Below, piece by piece: positions 2,376-53,132 of a stretch of DNA of 64,000 nucleotides (within the stretch, counting starts at the first letter, position 1; every line of letters begins with the position of its first letter). Below the pieces are notes generated by a model that saw nothing but the letters and a program-made list of their open reading frames with translations, was not told the origin of the DNA and ran no database searches. The position numbers and the translations under genes were made by a program. The stretch lies in contig MWCT01000001.1 of NCBI GenBank assembly GCA_002070185.1, positions 267,110 to 331,109 of the forward strand, read 5' to 3'. Source of the DNA: a candidate division BRC1 bacterium ADurb.Bin183 (GTDB lineage: Bacteria; Sumerlaeota; Sumerlaeia; MWCT01).

Positions 2376-3221
2376 ATGATAAAAGGCATTTCCTACTGGG
2401 CGTTTGCGCCGGAGACGGACGGCTCTCCCTGCGATATAACAAAAGCCATGCGCAGGGCAAAGACTCTCGGCTTTGACGCCATTGAATTGACGATTGACAA
2501 CGGGGGGCGTCTTTCCCTTTCGACCACGCAAAAGGAGGCGGAAGCCATCCGCCAAGCCGCCGATGAAATCGGCATCGCCCTCAAGACCGTATGCTCGGGC
2601 ATCGCGTGGGAATGCTCGCCCACACATCCGGATGCCGCCGTTCGAGCGCAGGCTGTGAAGAATGCAAAAAAGATGATTCAGATTGCATCATGGCTCGGCG
2701 CTGAGACGCTGCTCTACATTCCGGGCATGGTGTCTGCGCCGTTTGTGGCGGATTTTATTCCGCAACCTTATGATGCGGTGGACGCCCGCGCCCGCAAGGC
2801 GCTCAGGCAAATCCTTCCCCTTGCCGAAAAATGCGGCGTCCGCCTCGGCGTGGAAAATGTCTGGAACCGCTACCTGCTTACCCCGCTCGAAATGCGCGAT
2901 TTTATTGACTCTTTCGATTCGCCCTTTGTGGGCTCCTATTTCGATGTTGCCAACATTATGCTTTATGGACATCCCGAGCACTGGATTAAAATTCTCGGCA
3001 GGCGCATCTTTGCCGTTCATATCAAAGACTTCAAGGTTGAGGTCGGCAATCTAAACGGATTTGTTGATATTTTAACCGGCGACGTGTATTATCCGGCGGT
3101 TATGCAAATGTTCAAAAAGACTGGATATAAGGGAGCTTTCACAGCGGAAGTTTTCGCCTCCCCAAAGCGCGACATGCCCGCCATAGCCATTCAAGCGCTT
3201 AAAAAAATCGAAGAAATGTAA
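2376..3221 (+). CDS. Sugar phosphate isomerase/epimerase (xylose isomerase-like TIM barrel)
   Basis: 281-aa ORF; GFDAIEL, LGVENVWNRYL and HIKD-type segments match AP endonuclease 2 / xylose isomerase-like TIM-barrel proteins. ATG at 2376. Confidence 0.65.
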   Translation: MIKGISYWAFAPETDGSPCDITKAMRRAKTLGFDAIELTIDNGGRLSLSTTQKEAEAIRQAADEIGIALKTVCSGIAWECSPTHPDAAVRAQAVKNAKKMIQIASWLGAETLLYIPGMVSAPFVADFIPQPYDAVDARARKALRQILPLAEKCGVRLGVENVWNRYLLTPLEMRDFIDSFDSPFVGSYFDVANIMLYGHPEHWIKILGRRIFAVHIKDFKVEVGNLNGFVDILTGDVYYPAVMQMFKKTGYKGAFTAEVFASPKRDMPAIAIQALKKIEEM

Positions 3222-3229
3222 TTAGATTA

Positions 3230-4744
3230 TTATAGCACCTTCAGGACAAGAAGCGTTAAATCATCGGGCTGGGGGCTGTCGCCGATGAAGAGGCGGACTT
3301 CCGATTGAATTTTTTCGAGAAGCGCCTGCGCGCTGAGGGCGTGATTCTCGCGGATAACTTTTACCAGCCGCTCCATCCCGAACATCTCCAGCGCCTTTCC
3401 ATGGCGCGCGCCGCCGTCCGGCGCTTCCGGCGCCGCTTCCGTCACGCCGTCCGTATAGAGCACAAGAACATCGCCCGGCTCAAGTTCCGTCTCGTCCTCT
3501 TTCAAGCGAAATCCGAAATCCCCATTTTCCAAAACTCCCAGAACCGGTCCAAGCGGGTTAAGGTATTTGATGGCGGATTGGGAATGTTGGTAAAGTATGG
3601 GGGGATTATGCCCTGCGTTGGTATAGCGCAGCCATCTTTTTTTCGGGTCAAGCACGCCATAAAAAAGTGTGACAAACATACCCGATGAATTATCCGCCAG
3701 CATCTTTTGATTCACATCCTCCATCACCTCGGCAATGTGCCATGGGCGGGCGCATGCCTTGACGAGGGTGCGGGACATCGCCATGAATATAGCCGCGGGA
3801 ATCCCTTTGCCGGAGACGTCCGCTATAACGATTCCCAACCGCGGGTCAACGATAGGGTTATCAGGAGCGGGAGGGGAATCGCCGGCAATAGCATGCTCCC
3901 GATAGCCGTCCGGCGGTGGCGGATTTTCACTCAACGGGATGAAATCATAAAAATCGCCGCCGATTTCCTTTGCGGGCCACATGTCCGCCGCCATGTCGTA
4001 ACCCGGCAAGGCGGGAGGCGAGGCGGGGAGGATGCTCCGCTGAATTTCGCGGGCGATGAGCAGTTCATGGGATTTGACCTCCAATTCAATTCGCAACGCA
4101 TCTTTTTCAGATTCTATCTCCTTTTCTCTGATAAGGTTGCGAATAATGAAGGCGAAGACGCACATGCCCATTGTGTTGACCACTATCATGGGCGGACCCA
4201 CATTGCTGGCGATTTCAAGGGCGTGGTCAAAGGGTTTGAGGATAATGAGCGCCAGTCCGACATGTCCGATTTCCATAACGGCGGCAAAGACAACAGCCCA
4301 AAAAAAACCGATGAATTTTCCCTTATTCAGTTTATAGACCAGACCGGAGATTAACCCGATAAGGATTGTGGCAAGGGCGCAGTTTAGGCGGGTTTCGCCG
4401 CCCAGAAAATAGCGATGGATTCCGCCCACAAGCCCTGCGCCAAAACCAACAATGGGACCCGCGATAAGTCCGGCGATCATAGGTCCCAAATCCCGAAAGT
4501 TCACAATCGCTTTGTTGGGCATGACGATGCCGGTGTATGTGCCGAAGATGGAAAAGAGTCCGAAAATGATGACGGGGATGATATAGGTTTTCCATGTTGG
4601 ACGGCGTTCCCAGATTTCCGGGATGTGGCGGGTGTGCATGGCAAGGTAGCCCACCAAAGAGATGACAAATATTTTCTGGATTAGGTCAGCCAGAAGTTTG
4701 AAAAGAGCCATGCCTGCATTTTGATCACGGAAAATCTCATCCAT
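3230..4744 (-). CDS. Membrane-anchored PP2C-type serine phosphatase (RsbU/SpoIIE-like) with N-terminal 5TM LytS-type domain
   Basis: N-terminal ~190 aa contain several hydrophobic helices (5TMR-LYT-like). C-terminal half carries PP2C motifs GGDFYDF, IADVSGKGIPAA and LYTDGVTEA. Confidence 0.75.
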   Translation of the reverse strand: MDEIFRDQNAGMALFKLLADLIQKIFVISLVGYLAMHTRHIPEIWERRPTWKTYIIPVIIFGLFSIFGTYTGIVMPNKAIVNFRDLGPMIAGLIAGPIVGFGAGLVGGIHRYFLGGETRLNCALATILIGLISGLVYKLNKGKFIGFFWAVVFAAVMEIGHVGLALIILKPFDHALEIASNVGPPMIVVNTMGMCVFAFIIRNLIREKEIESEKDALRIELEVKSHELLIAREIQRSILPASPPALPGYDMAADMWPAKEIGGDFYDFIPLSENPPPPDGYREHAIAGDSPPAPDNPIVDPRLGIVIADVSGKGIPAAIFMAMSRTLVKACARPWHIAEVMEDVNQKMLADNSSGMFVTLFYGVLDPKKRWLRYTNAGHNPPILYQHSQSAIKYLNPLGPVLGVLENGDFGFRLKEDETELEPGDVLVLYTDGVTEAAPEAPDGGARHGKALEMFGMERLVKVIRENHALSAQALLEKIQSEVRLFIGDSPQPDDLTLLVLKVL

Positions 4745-4776
4745 GATGGCGCCTCTTCAATCTTGGCTTCCTCGTT

Positions 4777-5646
4777 TTAGAACGAGGTTTTGAGGTTGGA
4801 AAGGTGCTTCTGGGCGCGGTCAATGTGTTTCTGGTCGCCCACCGACTGGCTGAGCTCAAGAACCTTTTCCCATGTTTCAATCGCTTTTGAGCGCCAAGAG
4901 GGGCGTTTTTCATAAACAATTGCCAGATTGTTATAGGCTGGGAGAAATTCGGGGTCAATCTTGATGGCGTCCAGATAATGCTCCACCGCCTTTTCGTAAT
5001 CGCCCTGCCGCATTAACTCCACCGCTTTGCGGCATAATTCATCCACCAAGTCTTTGGTGGAGCGTCCGGGAACGGCTGAGGGCGCGCCTGAAGCGGGCGG
5101 GGGAGATGGCTCCGCTTTTGGCGGATAGGACGGAGCGACGGCGGTGGGGGACATAGAGTCGGGAGTTAAGACGATTGGCGGCGTGGCGGAGGCGGGTTTT
5201 TTGGGGAGCACCTCCTCTGTAGGTCCCGCTATTTTTACCGGTGTTTTGCGAGTGACGGCGGGTTCATCTTCGCCGAGGTGCTTGATTAAATACTCTTTCA
5301 CCACCAGCGTTCGCCGGAGCAATTCCGCCTCAGAGCCGGTTAGGATGTCAAAAATGCTTTGCAGTTTGGATACAAAAAGGATATCGCTGACGCTGTTGGA
5401 TGGGGAAATGAGAACCACGCGCGCCTTGTTTTTGTTGGCGGTCATCTTGAGCCCGACGAGCACGCCCAGTCCGGCGCTGTCAATGAAGTCCACGTTTGAA
5501 AGGTCAACATAAACCTGATTAATCCCTTTATCAATAAGGGAAACAGCGGCGTTTTTGAGCTGCTCACAATAATCAAGAACCACACGCCCTTGAATATCAA
5601 TATACAGGTTATTGTTGGTTCTATAGATATTGATGTCCATGCGCAC
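4777..5646 (-). CDS. STAS-domain anti-sigma-factor antagonist fused to a C-terminal TPR domain
   Basis: N-terminus has the STAS signature VDLSNVDFIDSAGLGVLVGL, followed by a Pro/Ala-rich linker and a TPR-like C-terminus (YEKAVEHYLDAIKIDPEFLPAYNNLAIVY). Ends 32 nt upstream of the PP2C gene on the same strand. Confidence 0.7.
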   Translation of the reverse strand: MRMDINIYRTNNNLYIDIQGRVVLDYCEQLKNAAVSLIDKGINQVYVDLSNVDFIDSAGLGVLVGLKMTANKNKARVVLISPSNSVSDILFVSKLQSIFDILTGSEAELLRRTLVVKEYLIKHLGEDEPAVTRKTPVKIAGPTEEVLPKKPASATPPIVLTPDSMSPTAVAPSYPPKAEPSPPPASGAPSAVPGRSTKDLVDELCRKAVELMRQGDYEKAVEHYLDAIKIDPEFLPAYNNLAIVYEKRPSWRSKAIETWEKVLELSQSVGDQKHIDRAQKHLSNLKTSF

Positions 5647-5674
5647 CTGCCCTTTCCTTCCCCGAGGGGATGCG

Positions 5675-5848
5675 TCAATCTTTTGCTATGGGCTTTGCCC
5701 GCTCAATAAGAAGTTCTGGAATTCCGTCAGTTATCGGGTATTCCAGCCGGCATGAACCGCACGCAAGGGCATCGTTTTCTTTTTTCCATTCGAGCCGTCC
5801 CTTGCATTTGGGACATGCCAATATTTCCAATAATTCTTTAGAAATCAT
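5675..5848 (-). CDS. Trm112-like small protein (UPF0434/YcaR family), 57 aa
   Basis: Not in the supplied track (under 60 aa). My hand translation of the reverse strand gives MISKELLEILACPKCKGRLEWKKENDALACGSCRLEYPITDGIPELLIERAKPIAKD, with the CPxC...PI.DGIP pattern of Trm112/YcaR proteins. Confidence 0.6.
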   Translation of the reverse strand: MISKELLEILACPKCKGRLEWKKENDALACGSCRLEYPITDGIPELLIERAKPIAKD

Positions 5849-5883
5849 TCAACCCTCCGTTTCAAGACCTTTGCCCGCTCTGA

Positions 5884-7284
5884 CTAAATCCCTTCCTCCC
5901 TTTGCATGTGCATAACGCCCGGGGGAATGGCTCCAGGGGGCGGCGGCGCCGCCTCGCCAAGTCCGGGCGGCGGAGGAACGGGCGCTGCCGCCACGCCGCT
6001 TTCGCTTGGTTTTTCTTCCCAGATGGTATCCAGATCCACGACCACACCCTCAACCATGCGGAGGACGTTGAGAAAGGCGTAGGCGTCCAGAACGCCTTCC
6101 CGTTCTTTTATGGTGTTGATAATCAGCGAATCGAGCTCGTAAGAACGGGAGACGTGGGAGACGTTGTAAAGGAAGTGGGTGATGTTGAAGTTTGAGCCGG
6201 TGAATCTCATTAGGATTGGAATTCCTGTGGCGATGATGTTTTGCGGAGGGGGCGCCTGCGCTCCGAGAGAAGCGGGGCGCGGTCGTCCAATCATGCCGAC
6301 TCTGCCGCCTTCGCCCATTTCGCCGTGCATCATCATCAAGTATTCGGGGTCTTCCGCCATCGCGAAAGGCATCGCTTCCGGCATAGGCGCGTTTTGTTCG
6401 CCCGGTTCAGGTGTTTCGCCGGGTTTGGGCGGTTCTTTGATAATATTCATTTCCTTCAGTTGCACTTCTGTTATGTCCTCAATCTTGTTAGTTTCCGCCA
6501 TTTGGATAATATCGTTGAGGGCGAAGAGTTGTTTATTGAGAGCCAGAAGGTCGTCATTGGGATAGGAAAGACGGAGAAATTCCTGAATCTGTTCGTCGGT
6601 GAATTTAATATCTTTAGGTTTGGCGCTGATGATGAGTTTGTAATGGCATTCGCGATTAATCAAAGGAACAAATTTGCCGTATTTATTGAGCCCCTCAATG
6701 GCGGGTTCATCAATGCCGATTTCCTCAAGGAGTTTGCTATACTGGCGCAAATTCTGGTCGCGGACGTTGGGGTTGTCCACGACCTTCAAAATGGCGCTGA
6801 TACCGCTGAGCGAACTCATAACGTCCCAAAGACGTTCGGGGCGTTTTCGGATATTTTCCGGCAGCTCGCGCGGGAGGTTCCATCCTTTTTCGCCGATAAA
6901 GCTGAGTTTTGTATTTTTTAAAGAATCCTGAAACCCGAGAAGAGTATCAATGCATTTTGTAAATTCCTCTTGGCGTTTTTTGATGGCTTCCGGGCTGGGG
7001 TCAATATAAGTTTTGGGAAGGTCTATTCTTAATTGTTCAATGACATCCTCGAATTCTTTTTTGTTCGTATCAACGCGGGCTTCGACCTTTTTTAATTCCT
7101 CAGGATTTTTTACCTTCGGGATAACCTGCTCATAGTTATCGCGGGAAGATTTCCAGTCATTCATGACAAGGGTGTATTCTGTGGCTTTGCGGGAAAAGAC
7201 CATGAAATGAAGACCGGCAAGAAAAAGAATTGTGGCAATTAAGCCAAACACCTTTTTCTCTCGATTGCGTAATACCATCTTCAT
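5884..7284 (-). CDS. Hypothetical membrane-anchored protein with Pro-rich C-terminus
   Basis: Track ORF starts at TTG 7305; the ATG at 7284 (MKMVLRN...) has an AGGAG upstream. One N-terminal hydrophobic helix, a coiled-coil-like middle and a PPPPG-rich tail. No family recognised. Confidence 0.45.
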   Translation of the reverse strand: MKMVLRNREKKVFGLIATILFLAGLHFMVFSRKATEYTLVMNDWKSSRDNYEQVIPKVKNPEELKKVEARVDTNKKEFEDVIEQLRIDLPKTYIDPSPEAIKKRQEEFTKCIDTLLGFQDSLKNTKLSFIGEKGWNLPRELPENIRKRPERLWDVMSSLSGISAILKVVDNPNVRDQNLRQYSKLLEEIGIDEPAIEGLNKYGKFVPLINRECHYKLIISAKPKDIKFTDEQIQEFLRLSYPNDDLLALNKQLFALNDIIQMAETNKIEDITEVQLKEMNIIKEPPKPGETPEPGEQNAPMPEAMPFAMAEDPEYLMMMHGEMGEGGRVGMIGRPRPASLGAQAPPPQNIIATGIPILMRFTGSNFNITHFLYNVSHVSRSYELDSLIINTIKEREGVLDAYAFLNVLRMVEGVVVDLDTIWEEKPSESGVAAAPVPPPPGLGEAAPPPPGAIPPGVMHMQREEGI

Positions 7285-7495
7285 GGGATGACATCTCCTT
7301 ATCAAAAACCGTCTTTTCTGCGGCGGTTTTCAAAAGTGCAAATATTTTGGCAAACTTCATTCACATATACCAGACGATTGTAAACGCGTTGCCTGCTCCG
7401 TTGTCAATAAAATATTGTTGGGTTCTTGGGTCACCTTGATTTTTCAAAAAAATAGATGTGTCCGTTGGAAGATGAAAAATGGGAGAAGGCGGAGG

Positions 7496-7530
7496 AATCT
7501 GGGCATGGCATGCCGCACGCGCCGACAGCG
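7496..7530. repeat. 35-nt motif, copy A of an imperfect direct repeat (31/35 identical to 11954..11988)
   Basis: aatctgggcatggcatgccgcacgcgccgacagcg versus aatccgggcatggcttgccgcatgcgccggcagcg. Both copies are intergenic and in the same orientation. Confidence 0.6.
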
Positions 7531-7617
7531 TGAATAAAAGCCCCGCCGATGTTTTGTTTGGCTCATCATCGGAGACTCTTTCTTTAAATGGTTTGTTGAT
7601 TTACTCCATGTATTTTA

Positions 7618-8886
7618 TTAATTATTTTGAGACGGTTTTGCGGAGGAAATAAGGAACAGTCTGCCGGTGCCGGCGGGTATAAATAACTGCACGCCCGGAA
7701 GTTTGGGGCTGCTGTCCCGAACGGTGATTTCCTCGCCAGATATCTTATCAATCTCACAAACTTGAGACATGTCGGATCTAAATTCCACTGTGGGCCAGGC
7801 GTTGTAAGCAATATGATAATTGTTTATCAAAACGGCTTGCCTACCGTCGGCATGTTTAAAAACGCCAACAAGATAATCCATATCAGGGTCTTCCTTGGAC
7901 TTTGATATTCGTTTTAAAGGCGTGCTGGTTAGGATGTCTTCAGAATTGCAGCCGGGAGGGATTCGATAGACGTCTGTGCTTGTGAGCTGCATGATGACGG
8001 CGCCGAGGTTTTTCAACTCTCCATTAATTCGCAATGCCTCATCATAGTGGTGAGTCTGGGTTCCATCAATAGCGATAATGGCGCCGCCTTTTGGAAATTC
8101 ATCCCCCGTGGGAGTGAAGTAACAAAAATAAAGAACGCCCTTTGCGCCATAAGCTAAAGAGGTGTATATCTGCCATCTAATTTGCGCTTCTGTGGGGTCG
8201 GTATGAGATCCGTAGGGCATAACGTTGAAAAAATTCCAAAAAGGGATGTTAAACTTAAGAGAGTATTTTCGCATTGTTTCAAGGTTGCTACAATAAAGAT
8301 CCCTGCCATCGCCATCAGGTCTGAAAATGGGGTAATGATCCATGCAAAGGACATCGGGATTCACAATTTTCATAAAATCAGATATATATTTCTCATAGGT
8401 ATTTTTTCCGAGCATACCAGAATTGGCGTAATTCGGATAGAGATTGATGAAGGATAGCTTGCCCGGATAACGTTCCCTATTTTTCTCAACCTTGCGAGCC
8501 AGATTTTTAAAATCAGCAGCAGAAGGCTCGTCTTTCAACAAATACCCCCAACAAGCAGAAGAAGAAGTTGGATAGTCTTCGGCATTTAAACCCCGCGTTC
8601 TAACAAGGGTTTTTAAATTATATTTTTCACAAAGTTCAAGTTGTTTATAGATTTCCTTAGGTGTTCTTGCTTTGACGCCAACCACCAGTGTAAAATTGGC
8701 ATCGGCAATTTCCTTATAACGCACGTCCGCTTTTTCGTCTAAGGGCGGATCTACCCAGAAACCGATTGCAAACCGATCCTGATGAAATCGGGCAATTTCC
8801 TCAGCAAGGGCGGGGTTTAAGAAATTGCAAATATACAGGAAGCATAGTGCAAATGCGATGGCTAATAAAAATAAATTTTTAGTCAA
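7618..8886 (-). CDS. Secreted glycoside hydrolase-like protein (TIM-barrel type, family uncertain)
   Basis: 422-aa ORF with an N-terminal signal peptide (MTKNLFLLAIAFALCFLY...ALA). Composition and motifs (GFWVDPP, LCMDHYP) suggest a GH-like TIM barrel. Visibly more AT-rich than flanking genes. Confidence 0.4.
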   Translation of the reverse strand: MTKNLFLLAIAFALCFLYICNFLNPALAEEIARFHQDRFAIGFWVDPPLDEKADVRYKEIADANFTLVVGVKARTPKEIYKQLELCEKYNLKTLVRTRGLNAEDYPTSSSACWGYLLKDEPSAADFKNLARKVEKNRERYPGKLSFINLYPNYANSGMLGKNTYEKYISDFMKIVNPDVLCMDHYPIFRPDGDGRDLYCSNLETMRKYSLKFNIPFWNFFNVMPYGSHTDPTEAQIRWQIYTSLAYGAKGVLYFCYFTPTGDEFPKGGAIIAIDGTQTHHYDEALRINGELKNLGAVIMQLTSTDVYRIPPGCNSEDILTSTPLKRISKSKEDPDMDYLVGVFKHADGRQAVLINNYHIAYNAWPTVEFRSDMSQVCEIDKISGEEITVRDSSPKLPGVQLFIPAGTGRLFLISSAKPSQNN

Positions 8887-9034: not shown

Positions 9035-11875
9035 CTATTTCTGTTTCATAATATGAATGATATCCGCAACGTCTATGATATTGTCCTTGTTATCATCGGC
9101 GGCATTTTTTTCTTCAGGTGTGAACGGTTTTTTGCCCAGAATATGCGAAATAATTGCGGGGATTGACGGAATATATTCGTATGCTCCCATATCATAACCA
9201 GAGCCCTGAGGACGCTTTACGCCGAGAATATCATAATCCGGCGCGCCTTCGGATGTCCCCTTGTCAATACAGGGGGAATTCGGCTGAAGCCGCAAATCCC
9301 ATTTTGTTGGGTCATCGCCGGATACATTGACAAACATAGGATTATCAGAAATATTGCCCCCGCCTGATATCCCACCGCTGAAACAACTGTACTTCACCAC
9401 ACCGCCGGAAAATTTAAAGTCTTCAGTATAATTATCCCATACTATACAGTTGGTCACTGTGCCTTTGTTATAAATCCCGCCGCCGTCTATTGCTCTGTTA
9501 TTATAGACTGTGCAATTGGTCACTGCGCCTTTGTTATAAATCCCGCCGCCGCGAGTTTTTGCGTTGTTTCCATAGACTGTGCAGTTGATCACCGTGCCGG
9601 AGTCGTAGTTATAAATCCCGCCGCCGCTATATTTTGCGCTGTTTCCATATATTGTGCAGTTGGTCACCGTGCCGTAGTTAGAAATCCCTCCGCCGTCATC
9701 TGCGTTGTTATTATAGACTATGCAATTGGTCACTGTGCCTTTGTTATAAATCCCGCCGCCGCAGAAGTCTTTGGCTATGACGTGTGTGCTTGATCTATTT
9801 CCATAGATTGTGCAGTTGGTCACCGTGCCTTTTTCGTAGTTATAAATCCCGCCGCCGTAATCTGCTTTGTTTTCATAGACGGTGCAGTTGGTCACCGTGC
9901 CGGAGTCGTAGTTATAAATTCCGCCGCCGCTATATTTTGCGCTGTTTCCATAGACTGTGCAGTCGGTCACCGTGCCTTTTTCGTCGTTATAAATCCCGCC
10001 GCCGATGTCTGTTGAGGTGTTATTATAGACTGTGCAGTTGGTCATCGTGCCGGAGTTATCTATCCCGCCGCCGTTTTTGGTTGCACTGTTTTCATAGACT
10101 GTGCAGTTGGTTACCGTGCCGTAGTTATAAATCCCACCGCCATCAGATACTGCGCTGTTTCCATAGACTGTACAGTTGGTCACCGTGCCTTGCCAGCTAT
10201 CAATCCCGCCGCCAACGTCTGCGTTATTTCCATAGACTGTGCAGTTGGTTACCGTGCCGTATTTGTTACTAATCCCGCCGCCGCTGCCAAATTGGCTTAA
10301 TACTTTGTTTCCATAGATTGTGCAGTTGGTCACTGTGCCAGTATTGTAAATCCCGCCGCCGTAATTTTCAGTTTTGCCTCTTGTAATATGAAAGCCGTCC
10401 AAAAATCCTGAGTTTTGGACGCAACGGCAAGCATCCTCTCCATCTATGATTGTGGGATGCGAGGAAATGTTCCGTTGTGAAAGTTGTGATTCCGTTCCCG
10501 CAAAGCCGCCATAAAGTGTAACGCGAATAGGAATTATTAATGTCTGCCCCTCAGCGTATGTTCCTTCCGCAACCCAGATTTGATAAATATCATCAGAATC
10601 CGCAATCTTATTCAAGGCGGCATTGATGGTTTTCAAAGCCGTCTTCCACGAGAGCCCATTATTGGCGTCGTTTCCGGATTTAGAAACATAAAGAGGACCC
10701 AAAGCTCGAGGCGGTTGAGGCTCATATTCATTGGGAGATTCATAGGCTCCCATGCAGACTTTGCCATCGGCGCCCGGTCGAGGATTGCCCATAATGTCTG
10801 TCTCCGGTGCGTCCTTCGTGCTCCCCGTATCCACACAAGGAGAGCCATTTTGCAATCGAAAATCCCATGTTGATAAATCGCCTGATGTGTTGACGAAAAG
10901 GGGATTCCCCCGTATATTTCCGTCATTTCCATCAGCCTCTTCGAAACAGCTATATTTCACAGATACTCTATTCCAAATATCTCCAAGCGAGTTTTTCCAT
11001 GAGATACAGTTGGTCACCGTGCCTTTGTTATAAATCCCGCCGACGATGTCCGTTGCGCTGTTATTATAGACTGTGCAGTTGGTCACCGTGCCTTTGTTAT
11101 AAATCCCGCCGCCGCCATATTTTGCGTTGTTGCTATAGACTGTGCAGTTAGTCACTGTGCCTTTTTCGTCGTTATGAATCCCGCCACCGTAATTTGCTTT
11201 GTTTTCATAGACTGTGCAATTGGTCAGCGCGCCGGAGTCGTAGTTATAAATCCCGCCGCCGTAACTTGTTGCGCTGTTATTATAGACGGTGCAGTTGGTC
11301 ACCGTGCCGGAAGAATCGTTATAAATCCCGCCGCCGTAACTTGTTGCGCTGTTATTATAGACTGTGCAGTTGGTCACCGTGCCGGAAGAGTTATAAATCC
11401 CGCCGCCGTAACTTGTTGCGCTGTTATTATAGACTGTGCAATTGGTCACCCTGCCGTAATTGTTATAAATCCCGCCGCCTAAGCCATATATCCCTCTTGT
11501 AATATGAAAGCCGTCCAAAACTCCTGAGTTATGGACGCATTGACGGGCATCCTCTCCATCTATGATTGTAGGATGTGCGGAAATGTTCCGTTCTGAAAGT
11601 TGTGATTCCGTTCCCGCAAAGCCGCCATAGAGCGCAACATCTTCACGATTACTAACGGTTTTAGATTCTGCATAGGTCCCTTTTGCGACCCAAACCTCAT
11701 CGCCTTCTTGTGCCTTTTCTGTTGCCTTTACAATTGTTTTTAAGGCGGCATCCCATGAAACTCCCGAATTAGTATCCTTGCCGGTGGTTTTCACATAATA
11801 CCGCGCCGCAAAGGTGGAAGTTGACATAATCACCCAAAATGCAATTACCGGGAAGATGCCTCGAGTAGATTTCAT
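9035..11875 (-). CDS. Secreted right-handed parallel beta-helix repeat protein, internally duplicated, with a dockerin-like C-terminal tail
   Basis: Track ORF 9035..11905; the ATG at 11875 (MKSTRG...) has a GGAG-type RBS. Two homologous ~450-aa modules, each with many GTVTNCTVYNNSA..GGGIYN rungs. C-terminus DDNKDNIIDVADIIHI resembles one dockerin/EF-hand-like Ca-binding loop. Confidence 0.7.
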   Translation of the reverse strand: MKSTRGIFPVIAFWVIMSTSTFAARYYVKTTGKDTNSGVSWDAALKTIVKATEKAQEGDEVWVAKGTYAESKTVSNREDVALYGGFAGTESQLSERNISAHPTIIDGEDARQCVHNSGVLDGFHITRGIYGLGGGIYNNYGRVTNCTVYNNSATSYGGGIYNSSGTVTNCTVYNNSATSYGGGIYNDSSGTVTNCTVYNNSATSYGGGIYNYDSGALTNCTVYENKANYGGGIHNDEKGTVTNCTVYSNNAKYGGGGIYNKGTVTNCTVYNNSATDIVGGIYNKGTVTNCISWKNSLGDIWNRVSVKYSCFEEADGNDGNIRGNPLFVNTSGDLSTWDFRLQNGSPCVDTGSTKDAPETDIMGNPRPGADGKVCMGAYESPNEYEPQPPRALGPLYVSKSGNDANNGLSWKTALKTINAALNKIADSDDIYQIWVAEGTYAEGQTLIIPIRVTLYGGFAGTESQLSQRNISSHPTIIDGEDACRCVQNSGFLDGFHITRGKTENYGGGIYNTGTVTNCTIYGNKVLSQFGSGGGISNKYGTVTNCTVYGNNADVGGGIDSWQGTVTNCTVYGNSAVSDGGGIYNYGTVTNCTVYENSATKNGGGIDNSGTMTNCTVYNNTSTDIGGGIYNDEKGTVTDCTVYGNSAKYSGGGIYNYDSGTVTNCTVYENKADYGGGIYNYEKGTVTNCTIYGNRSSTHVIAKDFCGGGIYNKGTVTNCIVYNNNADDGGGISNYGTVTNCTIYGNSAKYSGGGIYNYDSGTVINCTVYGNNAKTRGGGIYNKGAVTNCTVYNNRAIDGGGIYNKGTVTNCIVWDNYTEDFKFSGGVVKYSCFSGGISGGGNISDNPMFVNVSGDDPTKWDLRLQPNSPCIDKGTSEGAPDYDILGVKRPQGSGYDMGAYEYIPSIPAIISHILGKKPFTPEEKNAADDNKDNIIDVADIIHIMKQK
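9400..10350 (-). repeat. Degenerate tandem coding repeats (~70-75 nt period) encoding beta-helix rungs, C-terminal module
   Basis: Recurring near-identical stretches such as tgtgcagttggtcaccgtgcc...tataaatcccgccgcc appear roughly every 70-80 nt. Confidence 0.7.
10990..11480 (-). repeat. Degenerate tandem coding repeats encoding beta-helix rungs, N-terminal module
   Basis: Same repeat family as 9400..10350; several units are near-identical at the DNA level (e.g. gctgttattatagactgtgcagttggtcaccgtgccggaag). Confidence 0.7.
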
Positions 11876-11953
11876 TTTTATCCCCTCTCCAAATGTTCGA
11901 TACATTCAAATTCTCGACAAATAGAGAAACCAATTGCAATAAATATTTAGGGA

Positions 11954-24507: not shown

Positions 24508-25785
24508 TCATCCCTTCCTGATGTTCTTTATATGATAACGCAATGAATCAAACGATAGCGCGCCTTCGCGCAGGATGGTATAGGGTTCTTTGATGACGGA
24601 AAGGACTGTGGAGACTAGCTCGCAACGCATCTCTCCAGCATCAAGGATGATGTCCACTTTTCCGCCAAAGTATTCCTTCACCTGTTCGGCGGTGCGGGCG
24701 GGCGGTTGACCTGATGGATTGGCGCTGGTGACTGCGAGCGGGCGCGCCGCCATGTTAATGACGCCCAGCGCAACTGTGCAATCGGGGATGCGGATGCCGA
24801 TAGTATCGCCGTTGGAAACGGCGGAAAGCATAGTCTCAGGTTTGGAGAAGATGACCGTCAGCGCTCCAGGCCAGAGTTCATCCAGCATTTCTTCCACATC
24901 TTTTGGAATTTTGCGGACAAGGCGGCTGAGCGTTTTCATGCTGTCAATCAGCAAGGGGATGGGCTTGCTCTCTTTGCGCCCCTTGATGTCGTAAAGTTTA
25001 TGAACGGCTTTTTCGTTGGTTGAATCGCAGGCAAGACCATAGACGGTGTCTGTGGGGATGGCGACAATCTTTCCTTCCAAAATGGCATCCGCCACGCGTT
25101 CGATTGCCTCAAAGGAGGGGTTATCGGGATCAACGCGGAGGATTTGTCTGCTTTTAGGCGCGGGCGATGCGGCGGGGATATTGGGTCTTTTTGAGATAAT
25201 AGACGCAGGCGCGGGCTTTGGCTGCGGCGCAACTGGAGCGGCTTTGGGTTTCTCTTGCACTTTTGCGGGCGCGGGATTCAGCGCCAGATGAGGGAAACGG
25301 CTCATCAACTCCTGCTGATCCGTCTCGATTTTATCCATGCGGTTTTTGCGGAACGCCACCAGACGCTTGCGGAGTTCGCAATCATGGAGGGCAATAATCT
25401 CCGCCGCCAAAAGCAACGCATTTTGGACGCTATTGATTCCCACGGCGGCGACCGGGATGCCGGGCGGCATCTGCACGATGGAATAAAGGGCGTCCTGTCC
25501 GCGCAATGCGTCCGCCTCGACGGGAACGCCAATGACGGGCAGAAGCGTCTGCGCCGACACAACGCCGGGCAAGGCGGCAGCCATTCCGGCGACGGCGACA
25601 AATACCTGAACGCCCGCCTCTTCCGCTTCCTTTATCCAGCGCATGACGGCTTCCGGCGTTCGATGCGCCGATGCGATGCGCGCGGCACAGCGCAGATTCA
25701 ATTCCGCAACAGCCTCCAGCGCTTTTTCCACCAGATGCCAGTCCGATTTGCTCCCAATGATAATACCGATAGCAGGCTCGCCCAT
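24508..25785 (-). CDS. Fusion protein: N-terminal PurE-like (N5-CAIR mutase family) domain and C-terminal YrdC/TsaC-like (threonylcarbamoyl-AMP synthase family) domain
   Basis: Residues ~1-160 carry PurE signatures (IGIIIGSKSDW, SAHRTPE, AGMAAALPGV). A Pro/Ala-rich linker follows, then a YrdC domain (IVAIPTDTVYGLACD...RIPDCTVALGVINMAARPLAVTSANPSGQP). Confidence 0.75.
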   Translation of the reverse strand: MGEPAIGIIIGSKSDWHLVEKALEAVAELNLRCAARIASAHRTPEAVMRWIKEAEEAGVQVFVAVAGMAAALPGVVSAQTLLPVIGVPVEADALRGQDALYSIVQMPPGIPVAAVGINSVQNALLLAAEIIALHDCELRKRLVAFRKNRMDKIETDQQELMSRFPHLALNPAPAKVQEKPKAAPVAPQPKPAPASIISKRPNIPAASPAPKSRQILRVDPDNPSFEAIERVADAILEGKIVAIPTDTVYGLACDSTNEKAVHKLYDIKGRKESKPIPLLIDSMKTLSRLVRKIPKDVEEMLDELWPGALTVIFSKPETMLSAVSNGDTIGIRIPDCTVALGVINMAARPLAVTSANPSGQPPARTAEQVKEYFGGKVDIILDAGEMRCELVSTVLSVIKEPYTILREGALSFDSLRYHIKNIRKG

Positions 25786-29788: not shown

Positions 29789-29996
29789 TGAACGTTTATT
29801 AGGTCTTATTCATGCGGCGACAATTTGGCTTTAATGCAGCTGTCCTGATTTTGGGATGCGCGTTTTGCGCCTCCTGATAACTGGGCATCTGCTGATGCGA
29901 AAATAAAGCGGCTTGCCGAATACGGCAACTTATATTTTTGAATCATTCCTTTGTTGTCTTGACTCCCATCGGGCGTTGTTTTATCACCTTTTCATC

Positions 29997-31283
29997 ATGG
30001 TGGATAACGTTCAAAGAGACCGCGCCGAGCGCAAGAATTCGTGGCTTTATGGACTCATGGTGTTGATTTTGGTGTTTGGTCTTGCCGTGCTTATATATCT
30101 TGAACGGCAGATAGTTTCCGACCGCCGCATCGCCTTTGAAAATGCCGCCACTCTTTTAAGTCGGGAACTCGTGCTGAAAAATCCGGATAATGTCCGCATC
30201 TCTTCCGACGGGCTTAAAACGCTTGCGGCAACAATCCGCAAAAATCCTTTCATCAAAGATATCTATGTTTCAAAAATAATTGCCGGACGCGGCGAGCATA
30301 TCGTTTTCCCCTTTCATTACGAAACGCTTCTGCCGCCTCGGAAAAAAAACTTAAAACGCCTCATTCGGGCGCCGCTTGAGGAAAATGGAAATGTTTGGGG
30401 CTATCTTTATATTGAACCGAATAATAACATCATTGTAAGCGTGCGGGCGGCAGCGGCGGCTTTTTCCCTGCTGCTAATACTCTCGCTTGTCTCCTTTTAC
30501 AGGCGCGTCCACACGCAGGAGCGGGTCATCACGGAAACCTCATTCGCCCTTGATGAACGCCGGCGCGAATTAATCCGTCTGGAACGCCTTGCCCTTGCAG
30601 GAATGCTCACTGCCAACATCCTCCACGATATTAAAAAACCTGTTTTGAACATCAAGCAGGAGGCGCAGGACATGGAGCGCCAGCCCGATGAAAAAACGGC
30701 GCGGGCGGCGGCGCGAAGCATTCAGGAACAGGTGGAACTTTTTTTCAACATCCTGCGGGATTTGGGGTTGGAACGGTTTGTGAAGGCGCGCGAGGGCGGC
30801 GAGGAGTTTGTGGATGTGAATGAAATTTTGGAACGCGCCTGCCGCCTTGTGCGCTATGAATGCGGAAGCTCGGAAGTGGTTTTTGATTTGGCGGAAAAAC
30901 TACCCGCCCTGTTAGCCCGCCCGACCAGACTGATTCAACTATTTTCCAATTTGATTCTGAATGCATTTCAGGCGATGAAAGGAAGCGGGAAACTCGCCAT
31001 ACGCACAGCATTTCAAGACGGCGCGATTCATGTTGAAATAACCGACACGGGTCCCGGCATTCCGCCCGAGTTGATAAAAAAGATTTTCAATCCGTTTTTC
31101 AGCACGCGGGGCGGAGAAACCGGCGGAGAGGAAGGCTCCGGACTCGGGCTCTTTATCTCCAAAAATATTGTGGATGACATGAAGGGCGAATTGCGCGTTG
31201 AAAGCGCTCCCGGCAAAGGCGCAAAGTTTGCGGTTGTTCTGCCCGTTCATTCTCAAAACGAAAAGGAAGCGCAAAAAATATAA
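29997..31283 (+). CDS. Sensor histidine kinase
   Basis: Track ORF starts at TTG 29913; ATG at 29997. N-terminal TM helix, H-box (LAGMLTANILHDIKKP) and HATPase_c motifs (ITDTGPGIPPELIKKIFNPFFSTR, GSGLGLFISKNIV). Confidence 0.75.
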   Translation: MVDNVQRDRAERKNSWLYGLMVLILVFGLAVLIYLERQIVSDRRIAFENAATLLSRELVLKNPDNVRISSDGLKTLAATIRKNPFIKDIYVSKIIAGRGEHIVFPFHYETLLPPRKKNLKRLIRAPLEENGNVWGYLYIEPNNNIIVSVRAAAAAFSLLLILSLVSFYRRVHTQERVITETSFALDERRRELIRLERLALAGMLTANILHDIKKPVLNIKQEAQDMERQPDEKTARAAARSIQEQVELFFNILRDLGLERFVKAREGGEEFVDVNEILERACRLVRYECGSSEVVFDLAEKLPALLARPTRLIQLFSNLILNAFQAMKGSGKLAIRTAFQDGAIHVEITDTGPGIPPELIKKIFNPFFSTRGGETGGEEGSGLGLFISKNIVDDMKGELRVESAPGKGAKFAVVLPVHSQNEKEAQKI

Positions 31284-31285
31284 AT

Positions 31286-32704
31286 ATGAAAGACAAACCC
31301 GCCATATTGCTTGTTGAGGATGATGAAGCGTATGCTCGCCGGCTTGGGCGGAATCTTGAAATGGACGGCTTTGAGGTGGAGATTGCCTTTGGCGGTAAAG
31401 CCGCGCTCGAAACCCTTGCCCGCGCCTCTTTTGACCTTATCATCACCGACGTCAAAATGCCCGACCTCAACGGTATGGATTTGATCGAGATTATCCGCCG
31501 CGAAGGTCATCCCGGCGTGGAGCCGGACGTCCCCATCGTGGCGTTATCCTCAGTCAATTCTGTGGATACCGCAGTCGCCTGCATGAAACTCGGCGCCGCC
31601 GATTACATCACAAAGGAATCGGAACGTCCGGAAATAGTCCTTCGTCTGAAAAAGGCGCTCGAACAGGAACGTCTGCGGACGGAAAACCGATACCTGCGCG
31701 ACCAGCTGGCGCAGTCCAATGAGTTCAACGAATTTATCGGCGAGAGCGAAGCCATCCAGCGCATCAAACAGGAGATTGCCGACCTATCGCGTCAGGCGGT
31801 CTCGGTGATTCTTATGGGCGAAACGGGCGTGGGCAAGGAGCTCGTGGCGCGGGCGCTGCACCATTTGCGTGGCGCACACGCCGGTCCGTTTGTGGATGTG
31901 AACTGCGCCGCTCTGCCGGATGACAGCTTGATTCAATCTGAATTATTCGGGCACGAAAAAGGGGCGTTCACGGGAGCGGACGCCATGCGCAAAGGCAAAT
32001 TTGAATTGGCGGAAAACGGCAGTCTTTTTCTGGATGAAATCTCCGAACTGTCGCGCAACTCTCAAGGCAAACTCTTAAAGGTTTTAGAAAATCGGACATT
32101 CACCCGCCTTGGCGGCACAAGGGAAATCAAAGTCAATTGCCGGTTCCTCTTTGCCACAAACAAGGATTTATTTCAGGAAACGCGCTCGGGTCGTTTTCGA
32201 GAAGACCTTTATTATCGTGTGAATATTTATCCTATTGTCATCCCTCCGCTTCGGGAACGCCGCGAAGATATCGCCCCGCTGGCGCGGTTTTTCCTCTCGT
32301 TTTTTTGCCGCCGTTATAATAAGCCCGTCAAAAAATTGGAGCCGCGCGCCTTCGACCGGCTCATGTCCCATCCTTGGCTCGGCAACGTGCGCGAATTGCG
32401 AAATATCATAGAGCGGCTTGTGATTCGCGCGCCGGGGGAGGAAATCACGGCGGCGGATCTGGTTTCTTGCGGATTGGCGCTCGAGCCCGGGCGCAGCGGA
32501 ACGGTCATCTTGCCGCCGCAGGGCGTGCACTTAGACCAGCTGGAGGAGGACTTGACTCGTCAGGCGCTGGAGCGCGCCGGATGGAATCAGAAAAAAGCCG
32601 CCGACCTGCTCGGCATCTCCGTTGACCGCATGAACAGCCGCGTCCGCAAATACGGACTCACTCATCCCTCATGGCTGAAACACAAACCGTCTTTGAATGA
32701 TTGA
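31286..32704 (+). CDS. Sigma-54-dependent response regulator (NtrC/AtoC family)
   Basis: REC domain (ILLVEDDE...[14 protein letters not shown]), AAA+ sigma-54 activator motifs ([30 protein letters not shown]) and a C-terminal Fis-type HTH. Starts 3 nt after the kinase stop. Confidence 0.85.
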
Positions 32705-34457: not shown

Positions 34458-36638
34458 ATGAAGGAAAAATTGAACATCAGACTCATTATCATTGCCGCTT
34501 ATTTCATCGCCGCGGCTCTTATGCTGCCGGCGCAGCCGCCCGTCGGGGAGTTTTCGTTTCTCCATGTGAGCGACTCGCATATTTCTTATAGCTTTGAAAT
34601 GCCGCAACAATGGGACAACCTGCGCAGCTATGCCTGCATCAGCACCATCAAAAACCTTGGCAACGTTGAAATGCCCGCTTATAAAACGACCGCCCCCGCG
34701 CCTTCTTTCATCATCCATACCGGAGATGTGTCCGAGTTCGGTTTTGCGGGCGTAACGCAGCAAATTGTGAAAGAATATTTCAAGGGGTTCAAAGGCGAGT
34801 TTTATTACGTTCCGGGCAATCATGACAACACGTGGGTCAGCGATATGGCGTATATGCGCAAAAAATACGGCGGAATGAATTATTCCTTTGATTACGGCGG
34901 TTGCCATTTTATCGGACTTTCCAGCGCCACATTGCAAGACCCGGTTCCCTCCTTCGGCAGAGAGGTTATCCTTTTTGTGCAAAACGATTTAAAAAAAGTG
35001 AATCCTCAAACGCCTGTGTTTGTCTATTTTCATCATCCGTTGGATAGCAACGAATTTTGTTCTCCTTACGATCCCGCCCGCCTTGTAGATTGCCTGCGCG
35101 GACACAATATCGCATTGATTCTGGACGGGCACGGACATCAGGCTGTGAAGCATAATTTCTGGGGACTGGACGGCATAGAGGGCGGCTCCCCCTTTGCCGC
35201 CGGCAAGGCGCGGACGGAAGGCTTTAATATTGTGTATGTGAAAAACAACGAACTTTATGCGGCTTATAAATTATGCTCGGAAACAAGCGCTACAAAGGCG
35301 CTTGTTCAGAAAAAAATCTTTCCCTCTGAGCCATATCCGGAGATAATTGTCCGCTCCCCTTCCGAAGATTTGATAGTCGGCGATGGATATCTGCCCCTTG
35401 ATATCGAATATCATGCCCATGCCGCGCCCGCCGTTAAAGCCTCCTTCATTTTGGATGACGATACAACCGGAGAGCTGAACATAAAAAATTCCCGCATCCA
35501 CGGCAATGTCGCCGTCGGTTCTTTATGCAACGGCGTTCACAATATGCGGGTTAATATTACGGATGCCGCCGAAAAAAAGTTTGAGAAGAGTCTGCAGTTT
35601 ATTGTTGATAAACCGCTCGCGCCAAAAATGGGGCAGGGGAAATGGCGTTTTCGGATGAACGGGGCGTCAAAAGCCGCGCCGCTTCTTCTTGGCGGCGTGG
35701 TTTATGCCGGCTCGAATGACGGCTTTTTTTACGCGGTGAACGCCGAAACGGGTGAATTGAAATGGTCGTTTGATGCCGGCGCGGAAATCCTTGCCTCCGC
35801 CGCCGCATGGCAGAATCTGATTCTCTTCGGCGCGGGCGATGGAAAGTTCTATGCCCTTACCCCCGCAAAAGAAGTGAAATGGACTTATGATGTCGGTGTC
35901 GCCATTTATTCATCCCCGGTTGTGGATGAAAACGGTACGGTTTATTTTGGAACAAACGACGCCCGTCTTATCGCCCTTGATGCCGCATCGGGAAAACCTG
36001 TCTGGACTAACAGCGACGCTCGGCTATGCGTGGAATCCCAACCCTTTGTTCGGGGCGACCGCGTATATTTCGGCGCGTGGGATGGTTACCTTTATTGCCT
36101 GAACCGCAAGGACGGCAAGATGATTTGGAAAAAGCCGGGACCCAAAAACCAAAGCCGCGTCAACACCTACTACGCCCCTGCCGATAACGGTCCCGCCGCG
36201 ACCGATGCCGCAATATATCTGACAGACCGCGGTTATATTGCCGGACAATACGCGCTTGACGGTTCATACGTCAAAACTCTGGACGAAAAATGCTCCGCGC
36301 TTGCGCTTTCGGCTGATGGAAAAGCCCTTTATCTGCGCAGACTGAGCGAGCCAGTCAAAAAAATCAATGCCGACACAGGCGCCGATATCTGGGAATCTAA
36401 AGTTACCGCCGGGCGCATCCCCGTCTCGCCGATGGAAAAGGACGGCGTCCTTTATGTGTGCACCAATTCCGGACGCCTTTATGCCCTTGACGCACAATCC
36501 GGCGCGGTGCGATGGGAATATCAGGTAACGCCCAAGTTGTATGTTATGTCCGGAGTTGCCGTTGCCGGCGATAAAATCGTCTATACCACAGACATGGATG
36601 GCGTGATAACCGCCATCGAGCCTTGGCGCGAGAAATAA
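34458..36638 (+). CDS. Secreted metallophosphoesterase fused to a PQQ-like beta-propeller domain
   Basis: Signal peptide; calcineurin-like phosphoesterase motifs (LHVSDSH, HTGDVSE, GNHDNTW, GHGH); C-terminal repeated PQQ/BamB-like blades (e.g. VVYAGSNDGFFYAVNAETGELKW). Confidence 0.65.
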   Translation: MKEKLNIRLIIIAAYFIAAALMLPAQPPVGEFSFLHVSDSHISYSFEMPQQWDNLRSYACISTIKNLGNVEMPAYKTTAPAPSFIIHTGDVSEFGFAGVTQQIVKEYFKGFKGEFYYVPGNHDNTWVSDMAYMRKKYGGMNYSFDYGGCHFIGLSSATLQDPVPSFGREVILFVQNDLKKVNPQTPVFVYFHHPLDSNEFCSPYDPARLVDCLRGHNIALILDGHGHQAVKHNFWGLDGIEGGSPFAAGKARTEGFNIVYVKNNELYAAYKLCSETSATKALVQKKIFPSEPYPEIIVRSPSEDLIVGDGYLPLDIEYHAHAAPAVKASFILDDDTTGELNIKNSRIHGNVAVGSLCNGVHNMRVNITDAAEKKFEKSLQFIVDKPLAPKMGQGKWRFRMNGASKAAPLLLGGVVYAGSNDGFFYAVNAETGELKWSFDAGAEILASAAAWQNLILFGAGDGKFYALTPAKEVKWTYDVGVAIYSSPVVDENGTVYFGTNDARLIALDAASGKPVWTNSDARLCVESQPFVRGDRVYFGAWDGYLYCLNRKDGKMIWKKPGPKNQSRVNTYYAPADNGPAATDAAIYLTDRGYIAGQYALDGSYVKTLDEKCSALALSADGKALYLRRLSEPVKKINADTGADIWESKVTAGRIPVSPMEKDGVLYVCTNSGRLYALDAQSGAVRWEYQVTPKLYVMSGVAVAGDKIVYTTDMDGVITAIEPWREK

Positions 36639-44574: not shown

Positions 44575-44608
44575 TGGCGAAAAATCATGCTGAAACAAAC
44601 CTCGCGGT

Positions 44609-53113: not shown

Positions 53114-53132
53114 ACGAATTCGAGGGGAGCTT

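Follow-up and report, generated by a model that had tools for sequence, protein, structure and literature searches.

Organisation of the locus

Positions 3230-7284 of a 64,000-nucleotide stretch of DNA from the candidate division BRC1 bacterium ADurb.Bin183 (Sumerlaeota; contig MWCT01000001.1, positions 267,110 to 331,109; the whole stretch is hereafter called the window) are filled by four consecutive open reading frames (ORFs) on the reverse strand. In reading order, these encode a membrane protein (protein A), a small Trm112-like protein, a protein in which a STAS domain is joined to TPR repeats (STAS-TPR), and a PP2C phosphatase with a 5TMR-LYT sensor (Table 1). Comparison with other loci revealed that the evolutionarily conserved unit is A together with STAS-TPR, often accompanied by the Trm112-like gene, and not STAS together with the phosphatase.

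The intergenic gaps measure 35 nucleotides (nt) between A and Trm112, 28-34 nt between Trm112 and STAS-TPR, and 32 nt between STAS-TPR and the phosphatase. A purine-rich motif resembling a ribosome-binding site (RBS) precedes each downstream gene, and none of the three gaps contains a terminator-like hairpin. Judged from their spacing only, the four genes could be co-transcribed. The untranslated stretch 5' of gene A is the probable promoter and leader of such an operon; sigma-70-like consensus matches in it do not exceed chance, it matches no Rfam family, and promoter, terminator and Rfam scans of positions 2900-7900 gave chance-level hits only, no promoter being located. At the other end, a convergent TIM-barrel gene ends 8 nt past the phosphatase gene.

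A first-pass annotation of this DNA, made from the letters alone, had described the block as membrane protein, Trm112-like protein, STAS-TPR fusion and PP2C phosphatase with a five-transmembrane sensor, and these domain calls are correct according to Pfam and NCBIfam. The identical four-gene block occurs in independent assemblies, and the exact proteins were found on long digester-metagenome contigs and in two metagenome-assembled genomes (MAGs). Since, in addition, the core was found again in about 50 diverged loci, the gene arrangement is far beyond chance.

The same annotation had stated that the window lacks an RsbW/SpoIIAB-type kinase and a sigma factor, and our searches agree. A Pfam census of all plausible genes detected neither a HATPase_c_2/RsbW-type kinase nor a sigma factor or other sigma-70-family gene in the 64 kb, and a six-frame scan of the window with purpose-built hidden Markov models (HMMs) likewise returned neither an RsbW-type kinase nor a sigma factor. 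The only HATPase_c protein in the window is a sensor kinase (29913-31283), which is adjoined by a sigma-54-dependent response regulator (31286-32704).

Table 1. Genes and features of the four-gene block (positions in the window)
Feature	Position	Strand	Remarks
5TMR-LYT sensor fused to PP2C (SpoIIE/RsbU-type) Ser/Thr phosphatase, 504 residues	3230..4744	-	Pfam
STAS-linker-TPR protein, 287 residues	4777..5640	-	alternative GTG start at 5646
C-terminal TPR-like domain of STAS-TPR	4786..5058	-	residues 195-285, five helices
Ser55 codon, putative phospho-acceptor (DSAG motif)	5476..5478	-	motif alignment
Trm112/YcaR-type Cys4 zinc knuckle, 57 residues	5675..5848	-	PF03966
Gene A	5884..7284	-	466 residues, bitopic membrane protein
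Periplasmic Amuc_1100/PilO-like domain of A (predicted)	6052..6987	-	residues ~100-283 and ~350-411
Cytoplasmic tail (G-N/K-R-E-K motif) and transmembrane helix of A	7189..7284	-	most conserved segment
Untranslated stretch 5' of gene A, 333 nt	7285..7617	-	sole long gap in block

Gene neighbourhood in related loci

Locus contexts were gathered in two independent ways, via A-family proteins and by a metagenome scan with the STAS-TPR alignment. All loci were annotated with purpose-built HMMs, and the counts given below refer to non-redundant loci. The broad A-family alignment is too divergent for pattern building, and the better conserved STAS-TPR alignment was used as the probe. Indeed, STAS-TPR is the best conserved member of the module, with 63-73% identity where A has 40-58%; its orthologs are 63-73% identical in a close group and 31-49% identical in a distant group, and both end domains are conserved. 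A contig scan with patterns specific to the close group returned three loci only and says little on distant lineages. All named homologs of the A family and the module belong to Candidatus Sumerlaeota or Sumerlaeia.

STAS-TPR is directly preceded by an A-family gene of the same orientation in 40 of 40 non-redundant loci, counting those whose sequence extends 400 nt or more upstream. The linkage spans an A-family divergence down to about 21-25% identity, and several junctions overlap by 1-4 nt (L058, L070, L015, L050). The contexts fetched via A represent nine lineages (eight relatives and the window), in eight of which STAS-TPR is the next gene. The sole exception is locus L021 (7001-9353), where the A-family gene stands without an adjacent STAS-TPR gene and is followed by a convergent sigma-70-family gene (r2, r3, r4; 280 residues), while about 4 kb upstream there is a sigma-54 gene.

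By contrast, the 5TMR-LYT PP2C gene is directly downstream of the module in only one of 25 non-redundant lineages, that of the window. Among 96 flanking ORFs at 26 loci, a Pfam scan recognised 90 families in total, and the 25 families with at least two members include no kinase or phosphatase family. In the Pfam-annotated lineages for which flanking sequence is available, neither a HATPase_c_2 kinase nor a sigma factor came up at distances of up to about 6-11 kb from the module. Similarly, no RsbW-like kinase was detected in the non-redundant loci with an HMM that was built from two sequences only and had no match outside L019 and L020, two loci to which we return below.

The partner-switching operon of the first-pass annotation therefore stands as far as its components are concerned, both the STAS serine and the PP2C phosphatase being intact (see below), but it gives way as a description of what is conserved: as A adjoins STAS-TPR in all 40 loci, the phosphatase follows in one of 25 lineages and no kinase is nearby, a classical sigma-factor partner-switching operon is not the unit that evolution has kept. 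The 40 of 40 linkage likewise makes protein A the best candidate for the output partner to which that annotation had given no name.

The STAS-TPR protein

The start at 5640 is favoured over the GTG at 5646 because orthologs begin with MEINIYR. The STAS domain (residues 5-101, E = 1.4e-13) is followed by a variable, proline-rich and disordered linker of about 75 residues (approximately 120-194) and by the C-terminal domain, in which TPR_1/TPR_11 matches cover residues 202-247. A single-sequence AlphaFold2 (AF2) model of the protein, confident for the TPR part only (pLDDT above 90), predicts about two TPR repeats and a capping helix for residues 195-285. The signature RQGDYxKA...NNLxIVYEK...GDxKH..RAxKHL of this domain is kept in orthologs down to 31-40% overall identity, and so is the STAS loop.

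With 60.3 bits against a cut-off of 53.45, the protein is recognised by the anti-sigma-factor antagonist model TIGR00377. Its Ser55, within FIDSAGLGV, aligns with the DS(S/T/A)GLG motif of SpoIIAA, RsbV and TM1442, in which S58 (SpoIIAA) and S56 (RsbV) are the acceptor residues. The earlier annotation had named a conserved phosphorylatable serine in the STAS domain as a point to be checked, and the alignment supplies it: Ser55 is kept in 48 of 49 orthologs and Asp54 in all 49. Accepting the motif alignment, Ser55 is the putative phospho-acceptor of STAS-TPR. Neither STAS-TPR nor the Trm112-like protein has a signal peptide or a transmembrane (TM) segment, and both must therefore be cytoplasmic.

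A second, stand-alone STAS protein of about 115-145 residues with a DSAG or DSSG motif is encoded after STAS-TPR in six lineages (L022 at 9492-9932, L062, L063, L065, L067 and L072). Trm112 is absent from the loci with a second STAS, which may mean that there are two STAS partners. A stressosome (RsbR/RsbS/RsbT) was considered and rejected: the second STAS occurs in some distant loci and not in the window, and no RsbT-like kinase was found in the loci.

The phosphatase

The phosphatase combines a 5TM-5TMR_LYT domain (PF07694, residues 44-203, E = 1.2e-45) with a SpoIIE/PP2C domain (PF07228, residues 302-503, E = 2.3e-51), whose metal-binding motifs GGDFYD, ADVSGKG, YTDG and PDD are intact and whose closest solved relatives are the PP2C domains of Rv1364c and RssB. 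This architecture is widespread, more than 7,600 proteins matching at E <= 1e-20; among the 120 matches listed, all have PF07694 and 119 also PF07228, the other one being a truncated fragment. A proline-rich insertion (SENPPPPDGYREHAIAGDSPPAPDNPIVDPR; 3841-3930 on the reverse strand, residues ~272-301) lies between GGDFYD and DVSGKG, and the typical relatives of 454-455 residues are too short to contain it.

Action of a PPM phosphatase on a STAS protein is an established paradigm (PMC11418112). Two non-Sumerlaeota relatives of the window phosphatase (at L019 and L020) indeed stand in canonical triads of STAS, PP2C and HATPase_c_2 genes, an arrangement indicating that STAS proteins are the targets of this phosphatase family; the place that the kinase gene takes in the triad is vacant in the window. 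The cluster at L020 (4008-9581), on an unrelated metagenome contig, comprises a STAS protein, a 492-residue HATPase_c_2 protein, the 5TMR-LYT PP2C, a 145-residue RsbW-like kinase and a second membrane PP2C (ECF-ribofla_trS/HAMP/SpoIIE), and represents the canonical context of the family.

One homolog of the phosphatase is 88% identical, and the other best matches reach at most 49%, many of them from ANME-1 archaea and Chloroflexi. A 46% homolog, P0021, is encoded between URO-D and PilZ genes, apart from the module, on contig L018, which we assign to a related Sumerlaeota genome because its histidine kinase is 57% identical to that of the window and has the same adjacent regulator. P0021 is the top non-self match by HMMER score, is a reciprocal best BLAST match from its own side, and clusters with the window phosphatase in a neighbour-joining (NJ) tree, albeit weakly and with long branches. 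On these sequence comparisons, the phosphatase is probably a vertically inherited Sumerlaeota gene that stands behind the module only in the lineage of the window. Horizontal gain from archaea, suggested by the ANME-1 proteins that come next after the 88% homolog (47-49%), was rejected as the leading idea on the same, weak, evidence of HMMER rank, reciprocal best match and tree grouping.

The intact phosphatase beside a STAS protein that passes TIGR00377 and keeps the phospho-serine, and the triads in which the nearest non-Sumerlaeota PP2C relatives are found, are what would be seen if classical partner switching were dispersed over the genome. STAS-TPR would then be an anti-anti-sigma factor dephosphorylated by the PP2C, the RsbW/SpoIIAB-type kinase and the sigma factor would be encoded elsewhere, and A and Trm112 would be unrelated neighbours; the sigma-70-family gene next to the lone A-family gene at L021 would also fit. 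However, bystanders are not expected to keep the A/STAS-TPR adjacency in 40 of 40 loci over deep divergence, the phosphatase is rarely a neighbour, no kinase or sigma factor turned up in the window or the flanks and no kinase family recurs among the 96 flanking ORFs, and the classical scheme has no role for the conserved C-terminal TPR domain. We regard dispersed classical switching as unlikely.

The Trm112-like protein

The Trm112-like protein matches PF03966 (E = 2.9e-15; 56.3 bits, the cut-off being 22) and has an intact CPxC...CxxC signature (ACPKCKG...CGSC), but it scores below the equivalog cut-offs of NF008806 YcaR (45.5 against 126 bits) and NF038101 (46.4 against 77). It resembles other bacterial Trm112/YcaR proteins as a zinc knuckle of about 60 residues with a DGIPxLL motif, and differs from them in gene context, lying between the genes of a membrane protein and STAS-TPR; no methyltransferase gene adjoins it in the window. 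The function of bacterial Trm112 proteins is unknown (PMC5372719). To the first-pass annotation the gene was an unexpected neighbour. It is no odd bystander, as it is found between A and STAS-TPR in 24 of 43 non-redundant loci, diverged subgroups included, and constitutes a frequent, optional middle gene and recurrent third member of the module.

Protein A

Gene A starts with the ATG at 7284, preceded by AAGGAG 8 nt upstream, and public gene calls use the same start. The protein has one N-terminal TM helix and cannot be placed in any family of Pfam or NCBIfam. Searched by profile, 1.84 billion proteins yielded 196 cluster representatives, and 18 homologs are close; protein A is the first member of a family that is restricted to Sumerlaeota and provides the upstream partner of STAS-TPR without exception.

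Conservation within this family is highest in the first ~30 residues, i.e. the tail and TM helix, with 2.2-2.65 bits per column against 0.85-2.06 elsewhere (159 family members). No other residue of A is as well conserved as His26 in the single TM helix (154 of 154 sequences), and F30 is 93% conserved. His26 might serve in oligomerisation, as a ligand of a metal or haem, or in proton sensing. As the only part of A that would be reachable from the cytoplasm, the tail and TM segment is proposed to be a docking or signalling site.

The periplasmic part is split by a variable linker rich in proline and glycine (residues ~284-349). An AF2 model based on an alignment of 18 sequences is confident on both sides of this linker, in the two segments given in Table 1. 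When it was searched with Foldseek, ten Amuc_1100 chains ranked first, followed by PilO. Next to Amuc_1100, the folds most similar to A are the periplasmic domains of PilO, GspL and GspM/PulM. Two independent methods predict that protein A has the Amuc_1100/PilO fold, and the modelled protein shows PilO-type bitopic topology, coiled-coil helices and a ferredoxin-like periplasmic domain. Sequence identity to Amuc_1100 (Akkermansia muciniphila) and PilO is only 9-18%, and A differs from both in being much longer, with its insert and tail rich in proline and glycine, in its distinctive conserved tail motif and invariant TM histidine, and in lying outside a pilMNOPQ-type cluster.

These fold matches allow the reading that protein A simply is the PilO (or a GspM/GspL-type protein) of a type IV pilus or type II secretion machine, with STAS-TPR regulating pilus assembly or twitching. 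The gene for Amuc_1100 itself belongs to a type IV pilus cluster that also encodes the PilQ secretin (PMC10688800). All Sumerlaeota MAGs have been reported to contain type IV pilus genes (PMC8092238). The match to the Pfam family PilO (PF04350) is however faint (E = 0.043, 14.4 bits, under the cut-off of 22), and A-family proteins, at 430-600 residues, are two to three times longer than PilO (~200 residues). Moreover, no pilM, pilN, pilP, pilQ or ATPase gene stands next to the module in any sampled locus, and its recurrent neighbours are a lipid A acyltransferase gene and housekeeping genes, not pilus genes. Canonical PilO membership was accordingly rejected from the Pfam score and the lack of a pilMNOPQ-type cluster, and a pilus or secretion role of this kind seems quite improbable to us.

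Envelope-related neighbours

In 13 of the 22 distant-group loci with enough downstream sequence, STAS-TPR or the second STAS is directly followed by an LpxL-type gene (Lip_A_acyltrans) in the same orientation. Such a gene was noted after the module at L022, L043, L049, L053-L058, L063, L067, L069, L070 and L103 (the loci with an MlaE gene included); MlaE is encoded nearby only in L022 and L103, and MlaF and MlaD are not. The Trm112-like gene ycaR of E. coli shares an operon with the lipopolysaccharide (LPS) gene kdsB (PMC5954155). Together, the LpxL and MlaE neighbours and the ycaR-kdsB operon are circumstantial pointers to outer-membrane or LPS biogenesis.

At its left edge, the window contains the start of an LpxA-like acyltransferase gene (Hexapep and Acetyltransf_11; 1-72 on the reverse strand, L001:14673-15479), which is transcribed divergently from thrS and is separated by about 3.2 kb from the phosphatase gene. 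The presence of this gene indicates that the organism makes lipid A.

The same neighbours suit a module in which phosphorylation plays no part, STAS-TPR being a constitutive, MlaB-like scaffold subunit of an envelope machine based on A, maybe in lipid A acylation or lipid transport, and the PP2C being coincidental and having other substrates. The lack of a kinase near the module, the single lineage with an adjacent phosphatase and the position of P0021 apart from the module in a related genome agree with this scaffold, as does a weak similarity of STAS-TPR to MlaB (NF033618, E = 1.2e-4). MlaB, the STAS subunit of MlaFEDB, is comparable in serving an envelope-lipid machine rather than a sigma factor. 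It has no TPR domain, however, and we rejected MlaB membership of STAS-TPR, the score being 22.4 bits against a cut-off of 90 and neither MlaF nor MlaD being encoded adjacent or nearby. A purely structural role would also leave the near-invariance of the acceptor serine and the DSAGLG loop, kept even in the optional second STAS, to be accounted for, and the window phosphatase gene, which has an RBS of its own, follows STAS-TPR closely in the same orientation without an intervening terminator and comes from a family that elsewhere is wired to STAS proteins. A non-phosphorylated scaffold appears rather unlikely to us.

Proposed mechanism

The reading that we favour, tentatively and well short of conviction, is a Sumerlaeota-specific, envelope-linked module in which STAS-TPR acts as the cytoplasmic partner of A, gated by Ser55, with the PP2C as reset, a kinase encoded elsewhere and an output at the envelope. 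Its core would consist of A, as a bitopic inner-membrane protein with a large periplasmic domain of the Amuc_1100/PilO fold, and the cytoplasmic STAS-linker-TPR protein, between which the Trm112-type zinc knuckle would often be inserted as a small adaptor. In pilus machines, PilM docks on the N-terminal tail of PilN. By analogy, STAS-TPR might dock on the conserved cytoplasmic tail and TM segment of A, and the phosphorylation state of Ser55 would switch this association on or off. In the lineage of the window only, a membrane-sensing 5TMR-LYT PP2C may have been recruited behind the core, where a triggered sensor would lead to resetting of the switch by dephosphorylation of Ser55, opposed by a serine kinase encoded elsewhere in the genome. 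The output would probably lie at the cell envelope, in trans-envelope assembly or in lipid A/outer-membrane biogenesis, and not in a sigma factor.

Several points weigh against such a module. The contact between A and STAS-TPR is a proposal drawn from gene linkage, and at L021 an A-family gene dispenses with an adjacent STAS-TPR. As no kinase was found in the window or the flanks of the module, phosphorylation of Ser55 is putative, and a DSxG loop may also be conserved for structural reasons. With just a single lineage in which it adjoins the module, the phosphatase could stand there by chance. The parallel with PilM and PilN is no more than an analogy. Finally, no LpxL-type gene follows the module in any of the eight close-group loci, that of the window included, and where one does its presence may partly be inherited synteny.

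A more far-reaching version, to which we give little credence as yet, is that A, STAS-TPR and, where present, Trm112 form an undescribed trans-envelope signalling device of the Sumerlaeota, in which STAS-TPR as the phosphorylation-gated partner of A controls lipid A/outer-membrane biogenesis or a related assembly. If true, this would provide the first functional context for bacterial Trm112/YcaR knuckles and a new output class for STAS partner switching.

Comparison with known systems and significance

With RsbU/RsbV/RsbW and SpoIIE/SpoIIAA/SpoIIAB, the window module shares a STAS fold of the single-domain type with a DSxGLG serine beside a PP2C/SpoIIE phosphatase with a sensory N-terminus. 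It differs in the absence of a GHKL kinase/anti-sigma factor and of a sigma factor from the loci of the lineages examined, in the conserved C-terminal TPR of its STAS protein, in its genomic partner, a membrane protein with a predicted PilO fold, and in the restriction of the adjacent phosphatase to one lineage.

Partner switching without a sigma factor is known from Bordetella (BtrU/V/W) and Pseudomonas (HsbR/HsbA). Vibrio fischeri SypA/SypE is another such system (PMC10120452). These systems are alike in that phosphorylation of a STAS protein controls a non-transcriptional or unknown, cell-surface-related target. However, they encode the kinase, often fused to the phosphatase, beside the STAS gene, whereas the Sumerlaeota module has no linked kinase, carries its STAS domain in one protein with TPR repeats and pairs this protein with a membrane protein.

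Each domain of the module is known, as is the logic of STAS/PP2C switching. The STAS-TPR fusion, its obligate partner of predicted Amuc_1100/PilO fold, the recurrent Trm112 insert and the context without kinase and sigma factor were not found in the literature, and the Sumerlaeota genome papers make no mention of STAS, RsbU/W, anti-sigma factors or LPS. STAS/PP2C switching is usually read as sigma-factor control, while the comparative data presented here point to a membrane partner of the PilO/Amuc_1100 fold; if this holds true, the outputs of STAS/PP2C logic extend towards envelope machines. The cassette offers a reproducible, testable genomic context for bacterial Trm112/YcaR knuckles and Amuc_1100-like proteins, and the lipid A acyltransferase link and the E. 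coli operon suggest LPS/outer-membrane biogenesis as the direction to follow. As the phylum is essentially uncultured, tests will be heterologous or computational.

Other genes in the window

Several further genes of the window have unusual architectures. An ORF of 425 residues (24508-25785, reverse strand) joins an AIR carboxylase (PurE, residues 6-149) to Sua5/YciO/YrdC (residues 234-408), an unusual pairing of domains related to purine biosynthesis and to t6A, respectively. A 956-residue beta-helix protein (9035-11905, reverse strand; Pel9A-like/Chlam_PMP-like) consists of two similar halves with many 'GGGIYN...GTVTNCTVY' repeats, and its length varies between assemblies of the same lineage (946 and 956 residues). 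The giant 3,256-residue product of 53061-62831 (forward strand), probably a surface protein or an adhesin, has about nine PKD domains as well as NHL, F5/8 type C, SGL and FlgD-Ig domains. On the reverse strand, 41101-44715 encodes a 1,204-residue triple fusion of MFS transporter, acyltransferase and AMP-binding enzyme, reminiscent of LplT/Aas lysophospholipid recycling; as listed, it is overlapped by about 100 nt by the upstream GxGYxYP-family ORF (44609-47110, reverse strand), so that one of the two starts is probably located further downstream. Lastly, the 726-residue product of 34458-36638 (forward strand) is a calcineurin-like metallophosphoesterase fused to a PQQ/BamB-like beta-propeller.

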